DNA of 64,000 nt, taken from the NCBI GenBank assembly GCA_000146465.1, contig CP001945.1. The stretch is one strand, 5' to 3'. Below are positions 4,596-60,904 of this stretch, piece by piece. The position numbers and the translations under genes are program-made. Positions within the stretch are counted from its first letter, which is position 1; every line of letters starts with the position of its first letter. The notes under the pieces are model-generated. The model saw only the letters and a program-made list of their open reading frames with translations. It was not told where the DNA came from and did no database searches.

Positions 4596-5330
4596 ATGGA
4601 AAAATCAAATGCGAGCTTTAATTTCGACAAAATACCGAAGTTCATAATGAAGCTCTATAAGGCCACCAATAACGAGAAGTACAAAGGAATCTCCTGGACA
4701 CCCGATGGGCTTAAGATTCACATATATGACCGAGACGTGTTTGTTAAGGAGACACTTCCCCTCATATCGAAGACAAGGGAGTTTGGAACGTTTGTCCGGA
4801 TGTTGAACAGTTACGGGTTTGTTAAGTCCAAGGACATTGAAGAGGAGGACATATATTACAATAAGAACTTCAGAAAGGGAAGAGAGGACCTGCTGGGGTT
4901 TGATGATACACTCCGAATGATTAAAAGGAAGAAGTCCAATGATATTCGAATGAGAATTGGAGATGGATCTTTGAAGGACGTAGTGGAGTATTTATACGTA
5001 CAAAACCAGGAGTTATATACAGAATTGTCTGCTTGCAAGGAGCGCATAGAGAGGCAGGAGAGAGCCCTCAATGGTCTTATAGAAATTCTTTCAAGGGTCT
5101 TTAGAACAAATTCCCAGGACTTCGGGGCTCGGATTAAACCCAATGCTCATAATCTCCACGACGAAATGGACCTTTTTCTTGGAGAGCTTTCAGGGCCTCT
5201 CAAAGAAGGGTATGAGCCGCCTTCTCCTGATGTGCAAGGGAAAGGCATCCCTGAACTGTCCTTTAAGCCAGGAGAAAATTTTCAAGTAGATTCCGACTCT
5301 AAGAACGACAGGTATGATGCTTTCTTCTAG
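4596..5330 (+). CDS. Heat-shock-factor-type DNA-binding-domain transcription factor.
   Basis: The N-terminus FIMKLYKATNNEKYKGISWTPDGLKIHIYDRDVFVKETLPLISKTREFGTFVRMLNSYGFVKS...IYYNKNFRKGREDLL matches the HSF winged-helix consensus (FL.KL...W...G.sF.v.d...F...vLP.yFKh.nfsSFVRQLN.YGF.KV....F.hp.F.RGq..LL). A coiled-coil region follows. Confidence 0.8.
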   Translation: MEKSNASFNFDKIPKFIMKLYKATNNEKYKGISWTPDGLKIHIYDRDVFVKETLPLISKTREFGTFVRMLNSYGFVKSKDIEEEDIYYNKNFRKGREDLLGFDDTLRMIKRKKSNDIRMRIGDGSLKDVVEYLYVQNQELYTELSACKERIERQERALNGLIEILSRVFRTNSQDFGARIKPNAHNLHDEMDLFLGELSGPLKEGYEPPSPDVQGKGIPELSFKPGENFQVDSDSKNDRYDAFF

Positions 5331-5366: not shown

Positions 5367-7769
5367 ATGGCTATGGGTGGAGAGAACATATTAGAAATAA
5401 AGATGATGTGTAATCAACCTGTCAATTTTCTTCATTTTGCACTGAAACGATTATCCTTAATGGAGATTAGAAAGAGAAGTAGGATTGTTCGTGCGCTGGT
5501 AGCCTTGCTTGCCTTGACATCTGGAGCTGTTACTATCATTGCCTCTATAGCTAAGCTGCAAAACTACATCAAGTTCTCGCCTGAAAACGACGGTCGGTTG
5601 GATGAATTTGGTTTCCACCGATCATCTCTTGAGGTCTCAGTCGAAGAATTTGGATGTATCTCTCTCAGATTTTCAGACATAAAGGAAGACTATTTTAGCA
5701 TAGGCGAGAAAGAGGGACGAGAAGAGAAAGAGAGACTGTATCTTGAGTTTATTATAAACACTCTAGGCCAAATCTCTCTTCAAAAAGACGATGAAGGAAT
5801 ATCTGAGAAAAAAGATCTATCTAGAGAGAAAGAGAACTTGCGGATCTTAGTTTGTGAGATCAGATACAATATCTGTAAAAACTCGAAGCTTGCAGGTATC
5901 AAGGGAAAGACAAGCTCGGATCCCTCTTCAGTAGCGCTAAGGAGGTTTTTGGGACTTGATAGGAACTTCCTTAGCCACTGTGATCTTGAGACAGAGGAGA
6001 CGAAAAAGATGTTAAAGGTTATTCAGGGACACTGGCCTTTCCGTTTAGAAGATGTGGAATGCAAGGTTTTTGGAAAGACTCTTCCATTGAAAGGCTATGT
6101 GGCATCTATCCTTGCTAACTATCTCCTTGAGTGCAAAATAGAAAAGCAGAAGAGGATGGCAAGAGATGCAAACATTCTCATGAGAATTGAAACCAGTGGA
6201 GAGGTGGAAAACACTAAGCCAAGCGAATTTGTGATACTGAATGATGGGGAGTGTATGAGCCCGGAAACATACATGAATATTGTACGAGAAATTCTCTTTC
6301 TTGCCAAATACAAAAATATCATTTCTAGCCTGAGTGAAGCAAAAGAGAATCCCCTGTGTGCTGACGAGTTATGGTTTCTTCTACAGAAATGTAAGAACAG
6401 CTTTAATAGGAATTTGTCTTATAAGTTCGACCGAATTCTTGATAGTAAGCCTCGGGGTAATCTGGAGGCTGAAAACGGCCAGAATTGTAAGGTTGATAAT
6501 TCCCTAGCAGGTTTTCTTGGGGTATCTGAGGACTTTCGAGATGGGGAACTAAGACAGATAAAGGAAAAAGACATATCTATTCTTGAACACTACCAGAATT
6601 TTCTCTCCGAGATGGTTGATGAGAAGGTCTATTATCACATTCTAGACGCAAAAAAAGCCATTAAAGTAAAGGATTATATGGCAGTCCTACTACTCAGGAA
6701 CTATAAGGACAAAATATACAAGCTGGCTGGGGAAATTGAGAAAAAGAATGTTTCTTTGGTGAAGATAAACGGCAGATCTATTGAGATGAGGCGCTATCTG
6801 TGGTTTTTGGTTAGACTTATGCACAGAGCCGAATCTTTAAGTAACAGTGCTTCCAACAAAGAACTCAGCAATGGATTAAGAAAGTTAAGAGAGAACTTTA
6901 TACTTTACATCGAACTGTTGATACACGGTAGAAGGATAGATCATCTCGACCCTCCTTCCCGAGCAGTGCTTAGGCTTTTGGGAAAAGGAGAGATAGAAAG
7001 CATTAATACAGAAGATATAGAGCCTGAGCACAGTTATATATTTGAAAATGAGGAACTATGTATTTCTAGCAGAAATAATGTCTTTTCTACAAAGTGTAAT
7101 TTGAATGGAACTGAGGTATCTCTTGGGAGTTATGCCGTGAGTGTGATTTCGAAATATCTCAAGGAGTATGGTAAATACAACAAAGAAAAAGAGGATTCAG
7201 ACTCTAATGTTTTCAGGAATGTGAATGAAGCACTCTCCATAAGATACGAGGACGGTAGACCTGTGGGAACGGAATACTTTGTTATGGTAAGAAGTATGTT
7301 TAGAAAGGCGTTTTGCTATGAGTTGGAACATCTTTTGAGAAAGGCAATATTTGACGATGAGCCTGGATCTAGTATAATCAAGTACTATCTGGATTGGAAG
7401 ATAAGAAATATTGATGAGTTTTTCCTGAAGGCCTTTCGAATCACAATGAACATCTTTGACCAAGGTGGAAAGAGAGTTCCCTCTCATGCTGCCAGCATGA
7501 TCGAAAGGATTTTGGGGAATGATGTTTTCTTTATGGGAAATATTCGTCCAAAGCCGAAAGATGAGAAATTATTCAAGTCGATTTTGTTCCGATTTCCTCG
7601 AAAGTACAAGAAAATTGAATGTTATTTTGGGAATAAGAAATTCCGACTAGTTAATCTTGTTGGCAAGGCGATTGTGGAGTATCTTCGATCCGATCCCGAT
7701 GGACATGAGGGCCTCTCTCTTGAGCTTGAGAGGAGCTTGGTGCCGGAGACGGCATCCTATGAAGAATGA
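5367..7769 (+). CDS. Hypothetical 800-aa protein with an N-terminal signal-anchor or transmembrane segment. It is an orphan.
   Basis: Long intact ORF with a hydrophobic N-terminal segment (IVRALVALLALTSGAVTIIASIA). The rest is a charged, helical-looking sequence without a recognisable domain. Confidence 0.5.
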   Translation: MAMGGENILEIKMMCNQPVNFLHFALKRLSLMEIRKRSRIVRALVALLALTSGAVTIIASIAKLQNYIKFSPENDGRLDEFGFHRSSLEVSVEEFGCISLRFSDIKEDYFSIGEKEGREEKERLYLEFIINTLGQISLQKDDEGISEKKDLSREKENLRILVCEIRYNICKNSKLAGIKGKTSSDPSSVALRRFLGLDRNFLSHCDLETEETKKMLKVIQGHWPFRLEDVECKVFGKTLPLKGYVASILANYLLECKIEKQKRMARDANILMRIETSGEVENTKPSEFVILNDGECMSPETYMNIVREILFLAKYKNIISSLSEAKENPLCADELWFLLQKCKNSFNRNLSYKFDRILDSKPRGNLEAENGQNCKVDNSLAGFLGVSEDFRDGELRQIKEKDISILEHYQNFLSEMVDEKVYYHILDAKKAIKVKDYMAVLLLRNYKDKIYKLAGEIEKKNVSLVKINGRSIEMRRYLWFLVRLMHRAESLSNSASNKELSNGLRKLRENFILYIELLIHGRRIDHLDPPSRAVLRLLGKGEIESINTEDIEPEHSYIFENEELCISSRNNVFSTKCNLNGTEVSLGSYAVSVISKYLKEYGKYNKEKEDSDSNVFRNVNEALSIRYEDGRPVGTEYFVMVRSMFRKAFCYELEHLLRKAIFDDEPGSSIIKYYLDWKIRNIDEFFLKAFRITMNIFDQGGKRVPSHAASMIERILGNDVFFMGNIRPKPKDEKLFKSILFRFPRKYKKIECYFGNKKFRLVNLVGKAIVEYLRSDPDGHEGLSLELERSLVPETASYEE

Positions 7770-12901: not shown

Positions 12902-13091
12902 TTCAAGGGTACAAATTTTTTCAGGATTATGCATTTAGCACGGAGCAAAGTAGAAACAGAAGCCCAGGGATTATTAGGAAGGAATTCTCTTTTCATGTGA
13001 TGTATTCCAACCTTCTTTTACAAAAAATTCCTGTAAGATATTGGGGCCAGATTGCAGGTGTTGAAATCAATTCTTTTAGGACGAATTTATA

Positions 13092-13206
13092 GCCCCCGTA
13101 GCTCAGTCGGTTAGAGCGTGGTACTTATATGCTGGAAAGCTGTGCAATACTTGGTTTATACTGCTAAGATATGCCAAGGCCGCGGGTTCGAGTCCCGCTG
13201 GGGGCA
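13092..13206 (+). tRNA. tRNA-Ile (anticodon UAU) containing a 41-nt intron at the canonical 37/38 position, 13130..13170.
   Basis: Manual fold as follows. The acceptor stem GCCCCCG pairs with TGGGGGC, with one G-U pair. The D-arm is GCTC-AGTCGGTTA-GAGC. The anticodon stem TGGTA pairs with TGCCA. The anticodon loop is CT-TAT-A, interrupted by the intron. The T-arm is GCGGG-TTCGAGT-CCCGC (B-box GGTTCGAGTCC). The discriminator is A and no CCA is encoded. Confidence 0.8.
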
Positions 13207-13258
13207 GTTCTTTTCTTCTAATATTCTATAGTTTCTTTTAATTCCTTTGGCTTTCTTC

Positions 13259-16903: not shown

Positions 16904-17274
16904 ATGACAGTCGTGCAATACATCCTACTCAGGAGTGACTTGAGCTTTTCAAGAGGCGCAGTAATTGCCCAGGCCTGCCATTCAAGCGTCTATTCCATCG
17001 AAAAATACAGAAACCACCCAGACACAATAGAGTATCTAGAAAACATAGAATCTATGGCAAAGATAATTCTGAAGGTAAGTGGATGGATTAATTTTAGATT
17101 AAGGAAAAGGATGTGGAAGAGATAGCCGGATATCTTACTTCGAAAGGCATAGACCATACTGTTTGGATTGAAGATCCGGAAAGAATACCAACATGCATAT
17201 CTCTCAGGCCGTACAAAAGAAGCCATATACCTGATGTTGTTGATTATTTAGCAAGGTTTGGGCTATTCCGTTGA
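16904..17274 (+). CDS. PTRHD1-like peptidyl-tRNA hydrolase-fold protein, encoded in two exons. Exon 1 is 16904..17074, a 23-nt intron spans 17075..17097, and exon 2 is 17098..17274.
   Basis: Exon 1 encodes MTVVQYILLRSDLSFSRGAVIAQACHSSV...YLENIESMAKIILK. Exon 2 encodes IKEKDVEEIAGYLTSKGIDHTVWIEDPERIPTCISLRPYKRSHIPDVVDYLARFGLFR. Together they align along the whole length with PTRHD1 (LVQYVVVRSDL..GAVVAQCCHA...YLRELDSMHKVVLEA...[38 protein letters not shown]). The intron is GTAAGTGGATGGATTAATTTTAG. Without splicing, the ORF stops after 73 aa inside the intron-extended frame. Confidence 0.7.
17075..17097 (+). other. Spliceosomal micro-intron of 23 nt, GTAAGT...TTAATTTTAG.
   Basis: A canonical GTAAGT 5' splice site sits directly after codon 57. 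A TTAAT branch-like motif and the TTTTAG 3' splice site follow. Removal restores the frame into the conserved C-terminal half of the PTRHD1 homologue. Confidence 0.65.
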
Positions 17275-21755: not shown

Positions 21756-22505
21756 TTATTGAAAGTCTTGGACAATATCATTGAACTTATGCCTTTTCAC
21801 CTTCAGGTTCACAGTTATTCCCGAAGTCTTCTTGACTTTCTCCTTCTCCTTTTTCTTCGGAGGGGACTTTTGGGGAACCTTGGGAACCTCCAAATCTCCA
21901 ACCTCATCGAGGAATCCAAACGAGCAGTTTGCATTGTCTTGGAAATATCTCTTTGCCCATTCTAACATCGATTCCTCAAACTCAATCTTGTTACTTGGAT
22001 CGTAATTTATGCTTTTAAATTCATGATACGGCTTCAATGTCTTCATGTGCGAGCACAAAGAAAACAGAGAATCCCGAAGTTTTGAAATCTTTTTCTCGTT
22101 TTCTCTAAGTCTTCCAATCATTTGAGGAACCTCGCTCATCATGATGCGGATGTTCTCATTCATCGAATCGATCTCTTCCTTAGGTATCTCCCTGTCGCTT
22201 TTATGGTTCACCTTGTATATCATACCAAGGAAATTCTTCTTCTGCCTTTGGAAAAATTTGTTATAATACTTCAGTCCAGATCTTCCAATCTTCTTGAATC
22301 CATAGCTCTCCAGAAGCCTTTTAAATTCTTCTATTCCAGTACAAAATCCAAAAAACGGCCCGGTAATAAATCTAAACATCCCGGGGTTCCTTATAACAAT
22401 GCATCGTCCGCTTTTACTCCATTCAATTGCTGTGAAACGAGTACTGTCCACCATCTCATATAGTATCTCTATTTCCTTTTCTACGGACTTTGATTTCCCA
22501 ACCAT
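21756..22505 (-). CDS. HSF-type DNA-binding-domain protein.
   Basis: The sequence AIEWSKSGRCIVIRNPGMFRFITGPFFGFCTGIEEFKRLLESYGFKKI...KYYNKFFQRQKKNFLGMI corresponds to the HSF motifs (WS..G.sF.V.d...F...vLp..F....f.SFvRQLN.YGF.KV ... F.hp.F.rGq..LL.nI). Confidence 0.65.
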   Translation of the reverse strand: MVGKSKSVEKEIEILYEMVDSTRFTAIEWSKSGRCIVIRNPGMFRFITGPFFGFCTGIEEFKRLLESYGFKKIGRSGLKYYNKFFQRQKKNFLGMIYKVNHKSDREIPKEEIDSMNENIRIMMSEVPQMIGRLRENEKKISKLRDSLFSLCSHMKTLKPYHEFKSINYDPSNKIEFEESMLEWAKRYFQDNANCSFGFLDEVGDLEVPKVPQKSPPKKKEKEKVKKTSGITVNLKVKRHKFNDIVQDFQ

Positions 22506-23758: not shown

Positions 23759-24247
23759 ATGTCCATAGAGAACAAGCCATTCAGTTTTACATATATTATC
23801 CGTAACTTTCATAGAATAATTTCCAAGGGAAAGGATGGAGCAGCATGGAGTCCTTGCGGGAGAGAAGTTATAATTACAGACTCTGCCAAGTTCCAACGGT
23901 TCCTCGAGAAATTGTCAAGAAAAAAAAAAGGCTCGAAGCTAGACTACCTGAAAAGAAATGGCTTTATTCGGGGAAAGACAATGAACCAGAAATCGGTTTT
24001 CTCCCATCCATGGTTTGTAAGAGGGCAGAAAGATCTCCTGAAGAACTTCACGCTCAAAAACTCCTTCTGTTGGTCACAGGGGATACAGATGGGAAGCCAT
24101 GGAGAACCTGATGACCCACTGGACTCATTGAAGCTAGGGTTGTTTGATTTGGGAAGAACATTGTTCAATCTCCGGAACAGTTGTTTAGATTTGAATTCGC
24201 ATATTCAGCTTCTTTTTAATATGGCTAAGTCTAAATCATGTGAGTAA
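23759..24247 (+). CDS. HSF-type DNA-binding-domain protein, short form of 162 aa.
   Basis: The sequence AAWSPCGREVIITDSAKFQRFLEKL...LDYLKRNGFIRGK...VFSHPWFVRGQKDLLKNFTLKN matches HSF ([25 protein letters not shown]...FVRQLNMYGFRKV...EFQHPCFLRGQEQLLENIKRK). Confidence 0.65.
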   Translation: MSIENKPFSFTYIIRNFHRIISKGKDGAAWSPCGREVIITDSAKFQRFLEKLSRKKKGSKLDYLKRNGFIRGKTMNQKSVFSHPWFVRGQKDLLKNFTLKNSFCWSQGIQMGSHGEPDDPLDSLKLGLFDLGRTLFNLRNSCLDLNSHIQLLFNMAKSKSCE

Positions 24248-31360: not shown

Positions 31361-32452
31361 CTAGTGGGATTGCTCAAATCCTCTTTGAAGAGAGAGACAC
31401 CGTGCCTCGAGCTTGTACATGTACTTGGATGGGGATACCTTCCTCACTATCTTTATCATGGCTGGATCTGCCCGAAGACCCACTCTTGAGAAGATGTATT
31501 GAATGACGTCTTCATTGCTTTTGCAGAAGAAATAGCAGTGAACCAACGACTTATTCCCCCAGGCACTAATTTTTTGAAGATAGTCCAAGCTATACTCGGG
31601 TAGATTCAAGAAGAAATGGTCTACTTCTCTTCCTGCCATTTTCTCGAGGAATTCGGCTGCAGGGAGATTGAAGATTTCAATCTTTTTTGGATCGAGCTTA
31701 TTGATCTTAATGGATTTCCTTAAGCATTCAATGGCGTGAGAGTTCAAGTCGTTTGAGTATACTCTGCAGCCCTTCTTAAGTGCTGCCAACGAAACAGGCC
31801 CCACTCCACAGAAGGGATCGCACACCACATCCCCAACCTGGAACTTCTTCACAAGAATCATTCTTTCGCTTTGGAGCTTGGAACACCAATAGACATTTCT
31901 ATAGTCTATGCAAAAGAGAATGTCTCCTTCCCTGTGAATAGTCTCCAGCACAGGATCTCCTCCTATAACCTCCAGATCAAAGGATCGATACTCATTCGAT
32001 ATTTGACCAATCTTTGTTATCACTGTTCTACCTGTTTTATCGTGAACAACTTGTCCAATTACATTCTTATATTTCATCTGCTCCTCATCTAGATTCAAGT
32101 GAATTATGGATCCGACAATTTCAAAGGATGAAGGTGTTTGAACTTCTTTCGGCAATATTCTTTGAAGAGCCTCGCTGTAAGTAAAATATTCATAGCACAA
32201 CTCCAGTTCTATATGGATTAGGACATCTTCCTGGCTCAAAAAGTCTTCGTTGATTAGGACTAGGAGGTCGTGGTCGGTTTCAGTTAGAATCTTGAACGTG
32301 TCATACTTCTTTCTAGTTCGGATTACCGATGGAATGCGAGGAATTTTTCTGATGGATTCCTTGATTTTTTGGATGCAATTCGGAACTTCTTCTTCACTTG
32401 TTCCCAGTGCCTTCAGACAAAGTACTGATCTCACTTCATTCCTAAAATCCAT
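31361..32452 (-). CDS. TRM5: tRNA (guanine37-N1)-methyltransferase Trm5.
   Basis: Met-10+ methyltransferase core: VVCDPFCGVGPVSLAALKKGCRVYSNDLNSHAIECLRKSIKINKL ... FFLNLPE. This matches Trm5 (VVDVFAGVGPFAIP..NCTVFANDLNP ... VMNLPA). Confidence 0.8.
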   Translation of the reverse strand: MDFRNEVRSVLCLKALGTSEEEVPNCIQKIKESIRKIPRIPSVIRTRKKYDTFKILTETDHDLLVLINEDFLSQEDVLIHIELELCYEYFTYSEALQRILPKEVQTPSSFEIVGSIIHLNLDEEQMKYKNVIGQVVHDKTGRTVITKIGQISNEYRSFDLEVIGGDPVLETIHREGDILFCIDYRNVYWCSKLQSERMILVKKFQVGDVVCDPFCGVGPVSLAALKKGCRVYSNDLNSHAIECLRKSIKINKLDPKKIEIFNLPAAEFLEKMAGREVDHFFLNLPEYSLDYLQKISAWGNKSLVHCYFFCKSNEDVIQYIFSRVGLRADPAMIKIVRKVSPSKYMYKLEARCLSLQRGFEQSH

Positions 32453-46429: not shown

Positions 46430-46894
46430 ATGGAGATCCCGGTGGAAATAGCCAGTAACTTCTGGAAGATAGCCTTCTTTCTTCTGGTTCTTTACGTAGT
46501 TCTAGAGAAGAGACCCAGGATTAGAACCAAAAAGCCTGTCGAGAAAGGAGAATATGGAATGAACATTATAATCAACAAGGATTATAATATGACCAAGGGT
46601 AAAGTTATTTCCCAGATCTGTCATGGGATGGCCTCTGTGATGGAGCATCTGTTTAGAAACAAAGAACTATTTCTTGAATGGAAGAGAAACCAAGAGCCTA
46701 AGATAGTTCTGAAGGCCTCTGGAGGGGAGATTGAGGAGATTATAAGACTGGCCAAAAAGAACGGTGTTTACTACCACAAAATACACGATGCCGGTAGGAC
46801 ACAGGTCCCTTCTGGTGCAAACACGGTACTTATGCTTGGCCCAGCACTGAGATATAAGCTTTTGTCCATTTCTGGCCATTTGAAACTGTATTAG
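46430..46894 (+). CDS. PTH2: Peptidyl-tRNA hydrolase PTH2, with an N-terminal membrane anchor.
   Basis: An N-terminal transmembrane helix precedes KMNIIINKDYNMTKGKVISQICHGMASV...KIVLKASGGEIEEIIRLAKKNGVYYHKIHDAGRTQVPSGANTVLMLGP, which matches the PTH2 core ([24 protein letters not shown]...KVVLKA..EEELLEL...AKSLGL....[21 protein letters not shown]). Confidence 0.8.
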   Translation: MEIPVEIASNFWKIAFFLLVLYVVLEKRPRIRTKKPVEKGEYGMNIIINKDYNMTKGKVISQICHGMASVMEHLFRNKELFLEWKRNQEPKIVLKASGGEIEEIIRLAKKNGVYYHKIHDAGRTQVPSGANTVLMLGPALRYKLLSISGHLKLY

Positions 46895-59617: not shown

Positions 59618-60856
59618 TTATTTCAGTTTGATCTTCTTGGAGTCCTTTGAGTCGTCATAGAAGTCCGGCTTCACCTCGTACTTAAGTTTTTTCACCGGCT
59701 TCTTCTCCGATCTGCTTCTGGCCTCCAAGTCCTTAATTCTTCTCTTGATCGCCTCCTGCATCCTTATGCCAGCCTCGTTCGTTACCTTCTCCCCATAGGA
59801 ATCGATTCTGGCTGCTATTGCAATCTTAGACGCCAAGCTCCTAGCTATCTTTCCTTTATGTTGAGAATCCACTTGTCCTAGGAGAGAACATCCGTAGATC
59901 ATACCATACTTCGGAGTATTTGTCTTTGACTTCAATGCTTGGAACAAGGCTTTCTCTGCCCCCATGATCTGGATCGATGACCCAGGCATCTTAGCAAGAT
60001 TTGAAAGAGACCCTGCTTTGCTTATCATCTTTGCTCCTATCACTTCCCCAATCAGAGACGTTATGTTTGGGGCAAGATCCTCCATCTTCACCCGTATGTA
60101 TTCCACAAGCTCATCTCGGAATTCAAAGCTCTTTAATACGCTTTTTGCATCCTCCAATATATTCAGAACATCCGATGAGTCCATTGCAATCCCCATGCTT
60201 GTCTTTGCAAGACTTACAATCCTTTCCCACTCATCTTTGGCTATTTCCTTGAGCTCTTCCTTCTTCTCCTCAATACTCTCCTTTCTCCCAATCGCCACAA
60301 CAAGTCTTAAATATTTCCTGTTATTGTCTGTCACAGAAGACAGTTCGGGGAAGTGGAACCCATACCATTCCTTGAGTCTCATGCAATGGAGGTTGATGTC
60401 TCTGTCCATATCCTCCAGAAGTGAGACAGACTGAATCACCATGGTGTCAATCTTCTCGGGCACAATCTTAACCTTTTCCATTGATATCTTGTGTGCTATG
60501 CACAGGATCCTTTCCGAATATTCCCTCCCACTCATCCCAAAATACTTGTGGACATTGGATCTTATCAGCCTCTGGACATCATCATTCAAGTATACAACCT
60601 TTCTCAAAAACTTCTTCGATAAAGGCTCCACCAGTTTCTGGTCATCCACAGCCAAGACCTCTTTGTCCTTAACCTCTGCAAGCTTCATAAACCTCTCCAG
60701 ATTGCTCGGAACTTCCCCCTTGATCAGCAGTCCAGAAGACTCTAGTGCTTCGTCAATACTCTCAAATTTGTACGTCTCGACAAGTCGTGGCTCTTCAGAC
60801 AGATCTGTCTTGTCGAAAAGTCCATACCCAACAACAGTCTCCACCAAGTAAATCAT
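59618..60856 (-). CDS. Box C/D snoRNP protein of the Nop56/Nop58 (Nop5) family.
   Basis: The sequences MIYLVETVVGYGLFD, KIDTMVIQSVSLLEDMDRDINLHCMRLKEWYGFHFPEL and AGSLSNLAKMPGSSIQIMGAEKALFQALKSKTNTPKYGMIYGCSLLGQ...GKIARSLASKIAIAARID carry the diagnostic Nop-domain motifs. A C-terminal lysine-rich tail follows. Whether this is Nop56 or Nop58 is not resolved. Confidence 0.85.
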   Translation of the reverse strand: MIYLVETVVGYGLFDKTDLSEEPRLVETYKFESIDEALESSGLLIKGEVPSNLERFMKLAEVKDKEVLAVDDQKLVEPLSKKFLRKVVYLNDDVQRLIRSNVHKYFGMSGREYSERILCIAHKISMEKVKIVPEKIDTMVIQSVSLLEDMDRDINLHCMRLKEWYGFHFPELSSVTDNNRKYLRLVVAIGRKESIEEKKEELKEIAKDEWERIVSLAKTSMGIAMDSSDVLNILEDAKSVLKSFEFRDELVEYIRVKMEDLAPNITSLIGEVIGAKMISKAGSLSNLAKMPGSSIQIMGAEKALFQALKSKTNTPKYGMIYGCSLLGQVDSQHKGKIARSLASKIAIAARIDSYGEKVTNEAGIRMQEAIKRRIKDLEARSRSEKKPVKKLKYEVKPDFYDDSKDSKKIKLK

Positions 60857-60904
60857 TTCAAACGGTCGAAAAAAATAGAAAAAATAGAAATCCATTTCCA
60901 GATC

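Follow-up and report, generated by a model that had tools for sequence, protein, structure and literature searches.

Introns in tRNA genes, together with the endonuclease that removes them, are considered to occur in every eukaryote apart from one exception among nematodes (bioRxiv 10.1101/2025.06.17.660180), and in eukaryotic nuclear tRNAs they canonically lie between positions 37 and 38 (PMC4090602; PMC2695483). For tRNA-Ile(UAU), the share of genes with an intron is 83% in animals and 87% in fungi, against only 2% in plants (PMC12168002). Eukaryotic precursors feature a pair between position 32 of the anticodon loop and position -3 of the intron, the anticodon-intron pair (PMC4090602). In the case of yeast tRNA-Ile(UAU), the pseudouridylation of U34 and U36 by Pus1 depends on the intron, and pseudouridine at these two positions is believed to promote wobble pairing with A rather than with G (PMC4090602; bioRxiv 10.1101/2025.06.17.660180).

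In contrast to other fungi, Microsporidia are reported to possess a ligase of the RtcB type and not Trl1 (PMC6190962; PMC13247085). For Encephalitozoon cuniculi two tRNA introns are listed, of 16 and 42 bp (PMC2607024), in a complement of 44-46 tRNA genes (PMC2695483; PMC2607024), and Enterocytozoon bieneusi has both of these intron-containing genes, with introns at equal positions (PMC2607024). The literature has recorded the two tRNA introns of Encephalitozoon ever since the genome of E. cuniculi was published, and the intron that is the subject of this study, which belongs to a published and annotated genome, is already known. Here we describe the gene that carries it, tRNA-Ile(UAU) of Encephalitozoon intestinalis, within a stretch of 64,000 nucleotides of contig CP001945.1 (GenBank assembly GCA_000146465.1) that we refer to as the window, and compare it with its counterparts in related genomes and in metagenomes.

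A tRNA-Ile(UAU) gene with a 41-nt intron

When the whole window was searched against all 4227 Rfam families, the tRNA family RF00005 matched at 13092..13206 (+) with a score of 57.2 bits, above the gathering score of 29 (E=1e-9), along the whole of its 71-position model. With the intron search switched on (-i) and the default threshold, ARAGORN called a single gene in the window, a tRNA-Ile(tat) of 74 nt after splicing with an intron of 41 nt. Run without the intron search it called no gene in the window, which is an artefact of the setting, and at a relaxed threshold it made 118 calls, nearly all of them spurious, so only default-threshold calls were used. In the Rfam alignment, 42 bases are inserted between ...ACUUAUA and UGCCAAGG..., because A38 is counted there together with the intron. 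With an anticodon loop of 7 nt and a variable loop of 5 nt (ARAGORN), the spliced molecule has a class I body.

A preliminary description of this DNA, made from the sequence alone, had proposed a 74-nt tRNA with anticodon TAT and a 41-nt insert one nucleotide 3' of the anticodon. Both programs reproduced this, and the gene is real and correctly described. The same description had called it the only RNA gene in the window, and it is indeed the sole Rfam match at the gathering score and the sole default ARAGORN call; this holds for what the tools can see, since small RNAs that are not modelled lie beyond the reach of Rfam and ARAGORN, and "only RNA gene" is to be read as a statement about tool-detectable genes. 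Two further Rfam matches appeared at E<=1, both far under their own gathering scores. One, a U6atac-like match at 6974..7086 (+) with 20.4 bits against 33, lies inside an 800-aa open reading frame (5367..7769) and was rejected as a second RNA gene, being judged a chance match; the other, to Plastid-ycf2 (25 bits against 65.7), falls on the tRNA locus itself, read on its reverse strand.

Table 1. Features of the tRNA-Ile(UAU) locus and of other genes in the window
Feature	Position in window	Strand	Remarks
tRNA-Ile(UAU) gene, pre-tRNA body	13092..13206	+	115 nt; 74 nt spliced; no encoded CCA
Exon 1, 38 nt	13092..13129	+	acceptor 5' strand, D arm, anticodon-stem 5' strand, C32 U33, anticodon, A37
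A-box-like Pol III element TAGCTCAGTCGG	13099..13110	+	read from sequence; putative function
Anticodon TAT (U34 A35 U36), reads AUA codon	13126..13128	+	A37 at 13129
Intron, 41 nt, position 37/38	13130..13170	+	Rfam and ARAGORN
Exon 2, 36 nt	13171..13206	+	A38, anticodon-stem 3' strand, variable loop, T arm, acceptor 3' strand, discriminator A73
B-box Pol III element GGTTCGAGTCC	13185..13195	+	exact fit to consensus; putative function
TTTT run, probable Pol III terminator	13211..13214	+	5 nt past tRNA 3' end
RPSA, 40S ribosomal protein SA, 252 aa	12143..12901	-	Pfam Ribosomal_S2; exact match E. intestinalis ADM11329.1
Dim1, rRNA dimethyladenosine transferase, 277 aa	13259..14092	-	Pfam RrnaAD 1.4e-60; exact match E. 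intestinalis ADM11330.1
HSF-type DNA-binding domain protein	4596..5330	+	small protein
HSF-type DNA-binding domain protein	21756..22505	-	small protein
HSF-type DNA-binding domain protein	23759..24247	+	small protein
PTH2 (peptidyl-tRNA hydrolase), short gene	16904..17274	+	adjoins ABC transporter; 23-nt GT-AG spliceosomal intron at 17075..17097 (GTAAGTGGATGGATTAATTTTAG)
PTH2, longer paralogue	46430..46894		
TRM5/TYW2-type tRNA methyltransferase	31361..32452	-	not tRNA splicing pathway
Prp8, spliceosomal protein, 1992 aa	50053..56031	-	not tRNA splicing pathway
Nop56/58-type snoRNP protein	59618..60895	-	not tRNA splicing pathway

The gene contains sequences that fit both elements of an internal RNA polymerase III promoter, an A-box-like element (consensus TRGCNNAGTGG) and a B box (consensus GGTTCGANTCC). 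A run of at least four T residues lies 1-5 nt downstream of the gene in all five aligned species, and the remainder of the trailer is not conserved. Codon counts over 35 genes in the window show ATA to be the most used isoleucine codon (41% of isoleucine codons, 33 per 1000 codons), so tRNA-Ile(UAU) is not a minor tRNA here. A37 and A73 are both present, and the tRNA would be charged with isoleucine by IleRS and would decode AUA. Given the total of only 44-46 tRNA genes in E. cuniculi, the gene is probably single-copy.

The window has a G+C content of 41.5%, is about 92% coding and was assigned to E. intestinalis ATCC 50506 by its two proteins flanking the tRNA, RPSA and Dim1, which match that strain exactly. 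The tRNA gene is divergent from RPSA, at a distance of 190 bp, and convergent with Dim1, at 52 bp. The preliminary description had placed both neighbours on the strand opposite to the tRNA, as they are, but had given the gap between them as 160 bp: the intergenic space (12902..13258) measures 357 bp, or 324 bp from an upstream in-frame ATG at 12934, and the figure of 160 bp probably reflects the 157 bp between this ATG and the 5' end of the tRNA. Among 50 open reading frames of the window, no Pfam match was found to the tRNA splicing endonuclease, RtcB, Trl1 or Pus1; the RNA-related proteins that the window does encode belong to other pathways (Table 1). As a separate observation, an HSF-type DNA-binding domain occurs in three separate small proteins within 20 kb, a notable number for so reduced a genome.

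Orthologues in Encephalitozoon and Ordospora

The loci of relatives were fetched by way of their Dim1 homologues. The order ABC transporter - hypothetical - Dim1 - [tRNA] - RPSA - Sec10 is kept in all of the Encephalitozoon and Ordospora loci obtained, that is, in E. cuniculi GB-M1 chromosome IV (AL590444), a second E. cuniculi strain, E. hellem, E. romaleae, Ordospora colligata and the Logan assemblies L009 and L081, which derive from public read sets. In every one of these, a tRNA-Ile(tat) gene lies on the strand opposite to Dim1 and RPSA. The intron measures 41 nt in both E. cuniculi strains, E. hellem, E. romaleae and L081, 40 nt in L009 and 42 nt in Ordospora; in the window and all six orthologues, Rfam and ARAGORN place it at 37/38 and give the anticodon as TAT. 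The gene and the position of its intron are in this way conserved across seven genomes.

In the more distant relatives fetched (L005-L008), no tRNA-Ile was found beside Dim1 and synteny is broken, and the linkage of the two genes appears to be confined to the Encephalitozoon/Ordospora group. Three of these relatives, whose Dim1 is 79-84% identical, instead have an intronless tRNA-Val(TAC) ahead of Dim1 (L005 2857..2931, L006 2882..2956, L007 2858..2930), and Dim1 has different neighbours there, Fcf1 and a type II topoisomerase.

An apparent rearrangement of about 29 kb near the ABC transporter relative to E. cuniculi, with PTH2 in one genome and a HECT gene in the other as the neighbour, was examined and rejected. 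The short PTH2 gene is present in the window, hidden by its 23-nt intron, which causes a plain open reading frame scan to miss it; once spliced, it encodes 115 aa, a length equal to that of the E. cuniculi orthologue.

In an alignment of five species, pairing is complete (100%) in the D, anticodon and T stems. Ordospora has U-A in place of C-G at pair 3:70, and both L009 and Ordospora have A-U in place of G-C at one pair of the T stem; these two compensatory changes support the cloverleaf. Acceptor pair 4:69 (13095 and 13202) is C-G in the E. intestinalis window and in Ordospora; in E. cuniculi, E. hellem, E. romaleae, L009 and L081 it is a C.A mismatch, which is thus persistent across several species.

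Table 2. Sequence identity to the window at the tRNA-Ile(UAU) locus
Relative	100 nt upstream	Exons	Intron	Downstream trailer	Dim1 third positions
E. hellem	59%	97%	98%	64%	52%
E. cuniculi	50%	95%	93%	55%	59%
L009	50%	91%	85%	46%	57%
Ordospora	50%	89%	70%	43%	53%

When folded alone, the spliced tRNA is predicted to form a perfect cloverleaf (-31.4 kcal/mol). In the unconstrained fold of the 115-nt precursor there is none: the intron pairs incorrectly with the D arm, and the precursor has a z-score of only -2.2. Such a fold is what might be expected if the locus were a tRNA pseudogene or a relic that has lost expression or function. This is scarcely credible, however, in view of the 57.2-bit covariance-model score, the clean fold of the spliced product and the intact B box and T-run terminator. 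Furthermore, the exons are 89-97% identical among species in which neutral sites are saturated, compensatory changes have kept the stems paired, and the prominence of AUA among isoleucine codons means that a tRNA reading it is needed.

Predicted pairing of the intron with the anticodon region

Because the unconstrained fold was not a cloverleaf, precursor folds constrained by the tRNA body were used to study the intron. At intron position -3 lies G13168, which can pair with C32 (13124) to form the anticodon-intron pair, and both residues are conserved in all five aligned species. The 4-bp helix of which they are part, joining C32-A35 to intron positions -3 to -6, is likewise paired in five of five species, with one change from U-A to U.G. 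In the constrained folds of all five, the predicted structures place the 3' splice site in a 3-nt bulge, formed in the window by A13169 and U13170 on the intron side and A13171 on the exon side.

The lowest-energy folds differ between genera. For Encephalitozoon, U34-A37 pair with a UGUG in the intron and a second hairpin forms, and this UAUA/UGUG pairing of anticodon with intron is 97% paired across species; for Ordospora, the lowest-energy fold has the anticodon-intron helix. As models, the anticodon/UGUG pairing with the second hairpin and the C32-A35 anticodon-intron helix both fit the data. Within the intron, no double-sided covariation was seen among the five to seven closely related sequences compared. 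The idea that the second hairpin mimics an anticodon loop was dropped, as its loop, UUAUACU, is not conserved in E. cuniculi.

Related genes in metagenomes

A scan of metagenomes with a 17-mer from exon 1 (AGAGCGTGGTACTTATA) yielded 70 loci, 50 of which have a matching 3' half. All but one of these 50 tRNA-Ile(UAU)-like genes (49/50) are interrupted at the same position, by introns of 11-63 nt, and G is found at -3 in 35 of the 36 distinct, unrelated introns. Together with the published percentages for animals and fungi, this bears out an earlier statement, made for the window, that eukaryotic tRNA-Ile(UAU) genes typically contain an intron. The sole intronless gene, L075, reads CTTATAATGCCAA, which is the junction predicted for the window, CTTATA|ATGCCAA, as contiguous sequence.

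This last gene bears on whether the intron of the window might lie elsewhere in the anticodon loop, which would change both the anticodon of the mature tRNA and the amino acid that it carries. Programs do not always place introns unambiguously, as is seen in some of the metagenomic relatives, which ARAGORN labels Ala, Thr or Glu through another placement of the intron. At the locus studied here, however, the two programs agree with one another in the window and in its six orthologues, on the position that is canonical for eukaryotic nuclear tRNA introns; a shift of the intron by one base alters the mature sequence, so that its placement is unambiguous in the sequence; and the predicted junction is the one that L075 carries uninterrupted. 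Since the short variable loop also excludes a tRNA of the Leu or Ser type, we give another placement next to no likelihood.

On aquatic metagenome contigs (among L010-L079), tRNA-Ile(UAU) genes often stand in tight clusters, Ile-Tyr, Ile-Leu or Ile-Gly-Pro, with about 30-40 bp between genes, and some clusters include an intron-containing tRNA-Tyr. These contigs may come from picoeukaryotes or from large viruses.

Conservation of the intron and selection

Among Encephalitozoon species, the intron is conserved at about the level of the exons, while the flanks and the third codon positions of Dim1 are near saturation (Table 2). Only 3 of the 41 intron positions vary among five Encephalitozoon sequences, and the binomial tail probabilities for the observed intron identities are 2e-8 (E. 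hellem) and 1.5e-7 (E. cuniculi). Judged by this comparison, the intron is under purifying selection, and its exon-level conservation is the one mildly new observation made here.

How far this speaks for a function can be weighed against the view that the intron is a neutral passenger, with no role beyond being spliced out, that persists only for want of removal. There are several reasons to entertain such a view. In some systems tRNA introns can be deleted without lethality, some nematodes have lost the intron of tRNA-Ile(UAU) (bioRxiv 10.1101/2025.06.17.660180), and the metagenomic gene L075, which has the same exon-1 17-mer, does without one. In addition, Pus1 is dispensable in Saccharomyces cerevisiae (PMC4090602), which weakens modification as the sole reason for the retention of the intron. 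A neutral passenger would not, however, be expected to vary at only three sites and to retain 93-98% identity among Encephalitozoon species while flanks and synonymous sites have fallen to 50-64%, nor would the few bases needed for the anticodon-intron pair account for a conservation that reaches well past them. We therefore consider neutral persistence rather unlikely. The pattern supports the alternative, in which the intron has been retained for a function, probably anticodon modification, and not by inertia.

Since the intron is near-invariant where neutral sites are saturated, it could also have a sequence-specific job of its own, beyond splicing and modification. As a candidate for such a role, the excised free intron might pair with other RNAs, as has been reported for tRNA introns in yeast. 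On the sequence pattern available, we regard this as decidedly improbable.

Discussion

The reading that we prefer, to which we assign a probability of about 0.92, is that the locus is a functional nuclear tRNA-Ile(UAU) gene of E. intestinalis, whose product reads AUA and is spliced by the endonuclease and RtcB, and whose intron is probably kept for the sake of anticodon modification. For the steps of transcription, cleavage, ligation and pseudouridylation, this reading draws on the literature and on homology. RNA polymerase III would transcribe the gene from its internal A and B boxes and stop at the downstream T run, giving a precursor in which a single base separates the anticodon from the 41-nt intron on its 3' side. 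The tRNA splicing endonuclease (Sen2/Sen34) would then cut at 37/38 and at the border between intron and exon 2, locating these sites by the folded tRNA body and the C32/G-3 pair, which would leave the 3' site in a 3-nt bulge. The halves would be joined by a ligase of the RtcB type, as reported for Microsporidia, and CCA would be added after ligation. The intron itself would be kept near-unchanged probably because the anticodon can be modified only on a precursor that still contains the intron: in yeast and animals, Pus1 makes pseudouridine at positions 34 and 36, which aids the reading of AUA but not that of AUG, and the same may apply here.

One of the smallest eukaryotic nuclear genomes still keeps its tRNA-Ile(UAU) intron and hence, by implication, a protein-based tRNA splicing pathway. 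The retention of endonuclease and ligase in E. intestinalis, which follows logically from the presence of the intron, agrees with the literature. As the isoleucine codon used most often is read here by a tRNA that has to be spliced, this pathway should be indispensable.

Four known systems are close enough for comparison. Archaeal tRNA introns with a bulge-helix-bulge (BHB) motif resemble this one in being spliced by proteins that include a homologous endonuclease, and in having a 3-nt bulge with the 3' splice site beside a 4-bp helix, both present here in one of the predicted models. A strict archaeal BHB, however, consists of two 3-nt bulges around a 4-bp helix, each with a splice site, whereas in either of the folds predicted here the 5' splice site lies in an internal loop or beside a bulged base, and not in a 3-nt bulge. 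The eukaryotic endonuclease relies on the mature tRNA domain and the anticodon-intron pair, and not on a strict BHB (PMC4090602).

In S. cerevisiae, the codon AUA is rare and its tRNA minor, whereas ATA is the commonest isoleucine codon in the E. intestinalis window. The intron of the yeast tRNA-Ile(UAU) is about 60 nt long, compared with 41 nt in E. intestinalis. The two tRNAs share their anticodon, with U34 and U36 as possible sites of pseudouridylation, as well as A37, A73 and an intron at 37/38 that is able to pair with the region of the anticodon (in part PMC4090602). Yeast ligates its tRNA halves with Trl1 and Tpt1, whereas Microsporidia are reported to use RtcB. In yeast the modification by Pus1 depends on the intron, and it may do so in microsporidia.

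Animal tRNA-Ile(UAU) genes, such as those of human and Caenorhabditis elegans, resemble the E. intestinalis gene in their conserved intron at 37/38 and in ligation of the RtcB type. The anticodon arm, GGUACUUAUAAUGCC, is one that we take to be identical to that of human tRNA-Ile(UAU). The human intron, at about 20 nt, is shorter than the 41 nt of E. intestinalis, and animals have several copies of the gene, whereas E. intestinalis probably has a single one.

The fourth system is the orthologue on chromosome IV of E. cuniculi GB-M1 (AL590444), which occupies the same position and orientation relative to Dim1 and RPSA and has a 41-nt intron at the same place, presumably the tRNA intron that the literature lists as 42 bp (PMC2607024). 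Compared with the window, 38 of 41 intron positions and 70 of 74 exon positions are identical. The differences comprise three substitutions in the intron and, in the acceptor stem, a C4.A69 mismatch in E. cuniculi where the window has C-G, while the flanking intergenic sequence, at about 50% identity, is unalignable.
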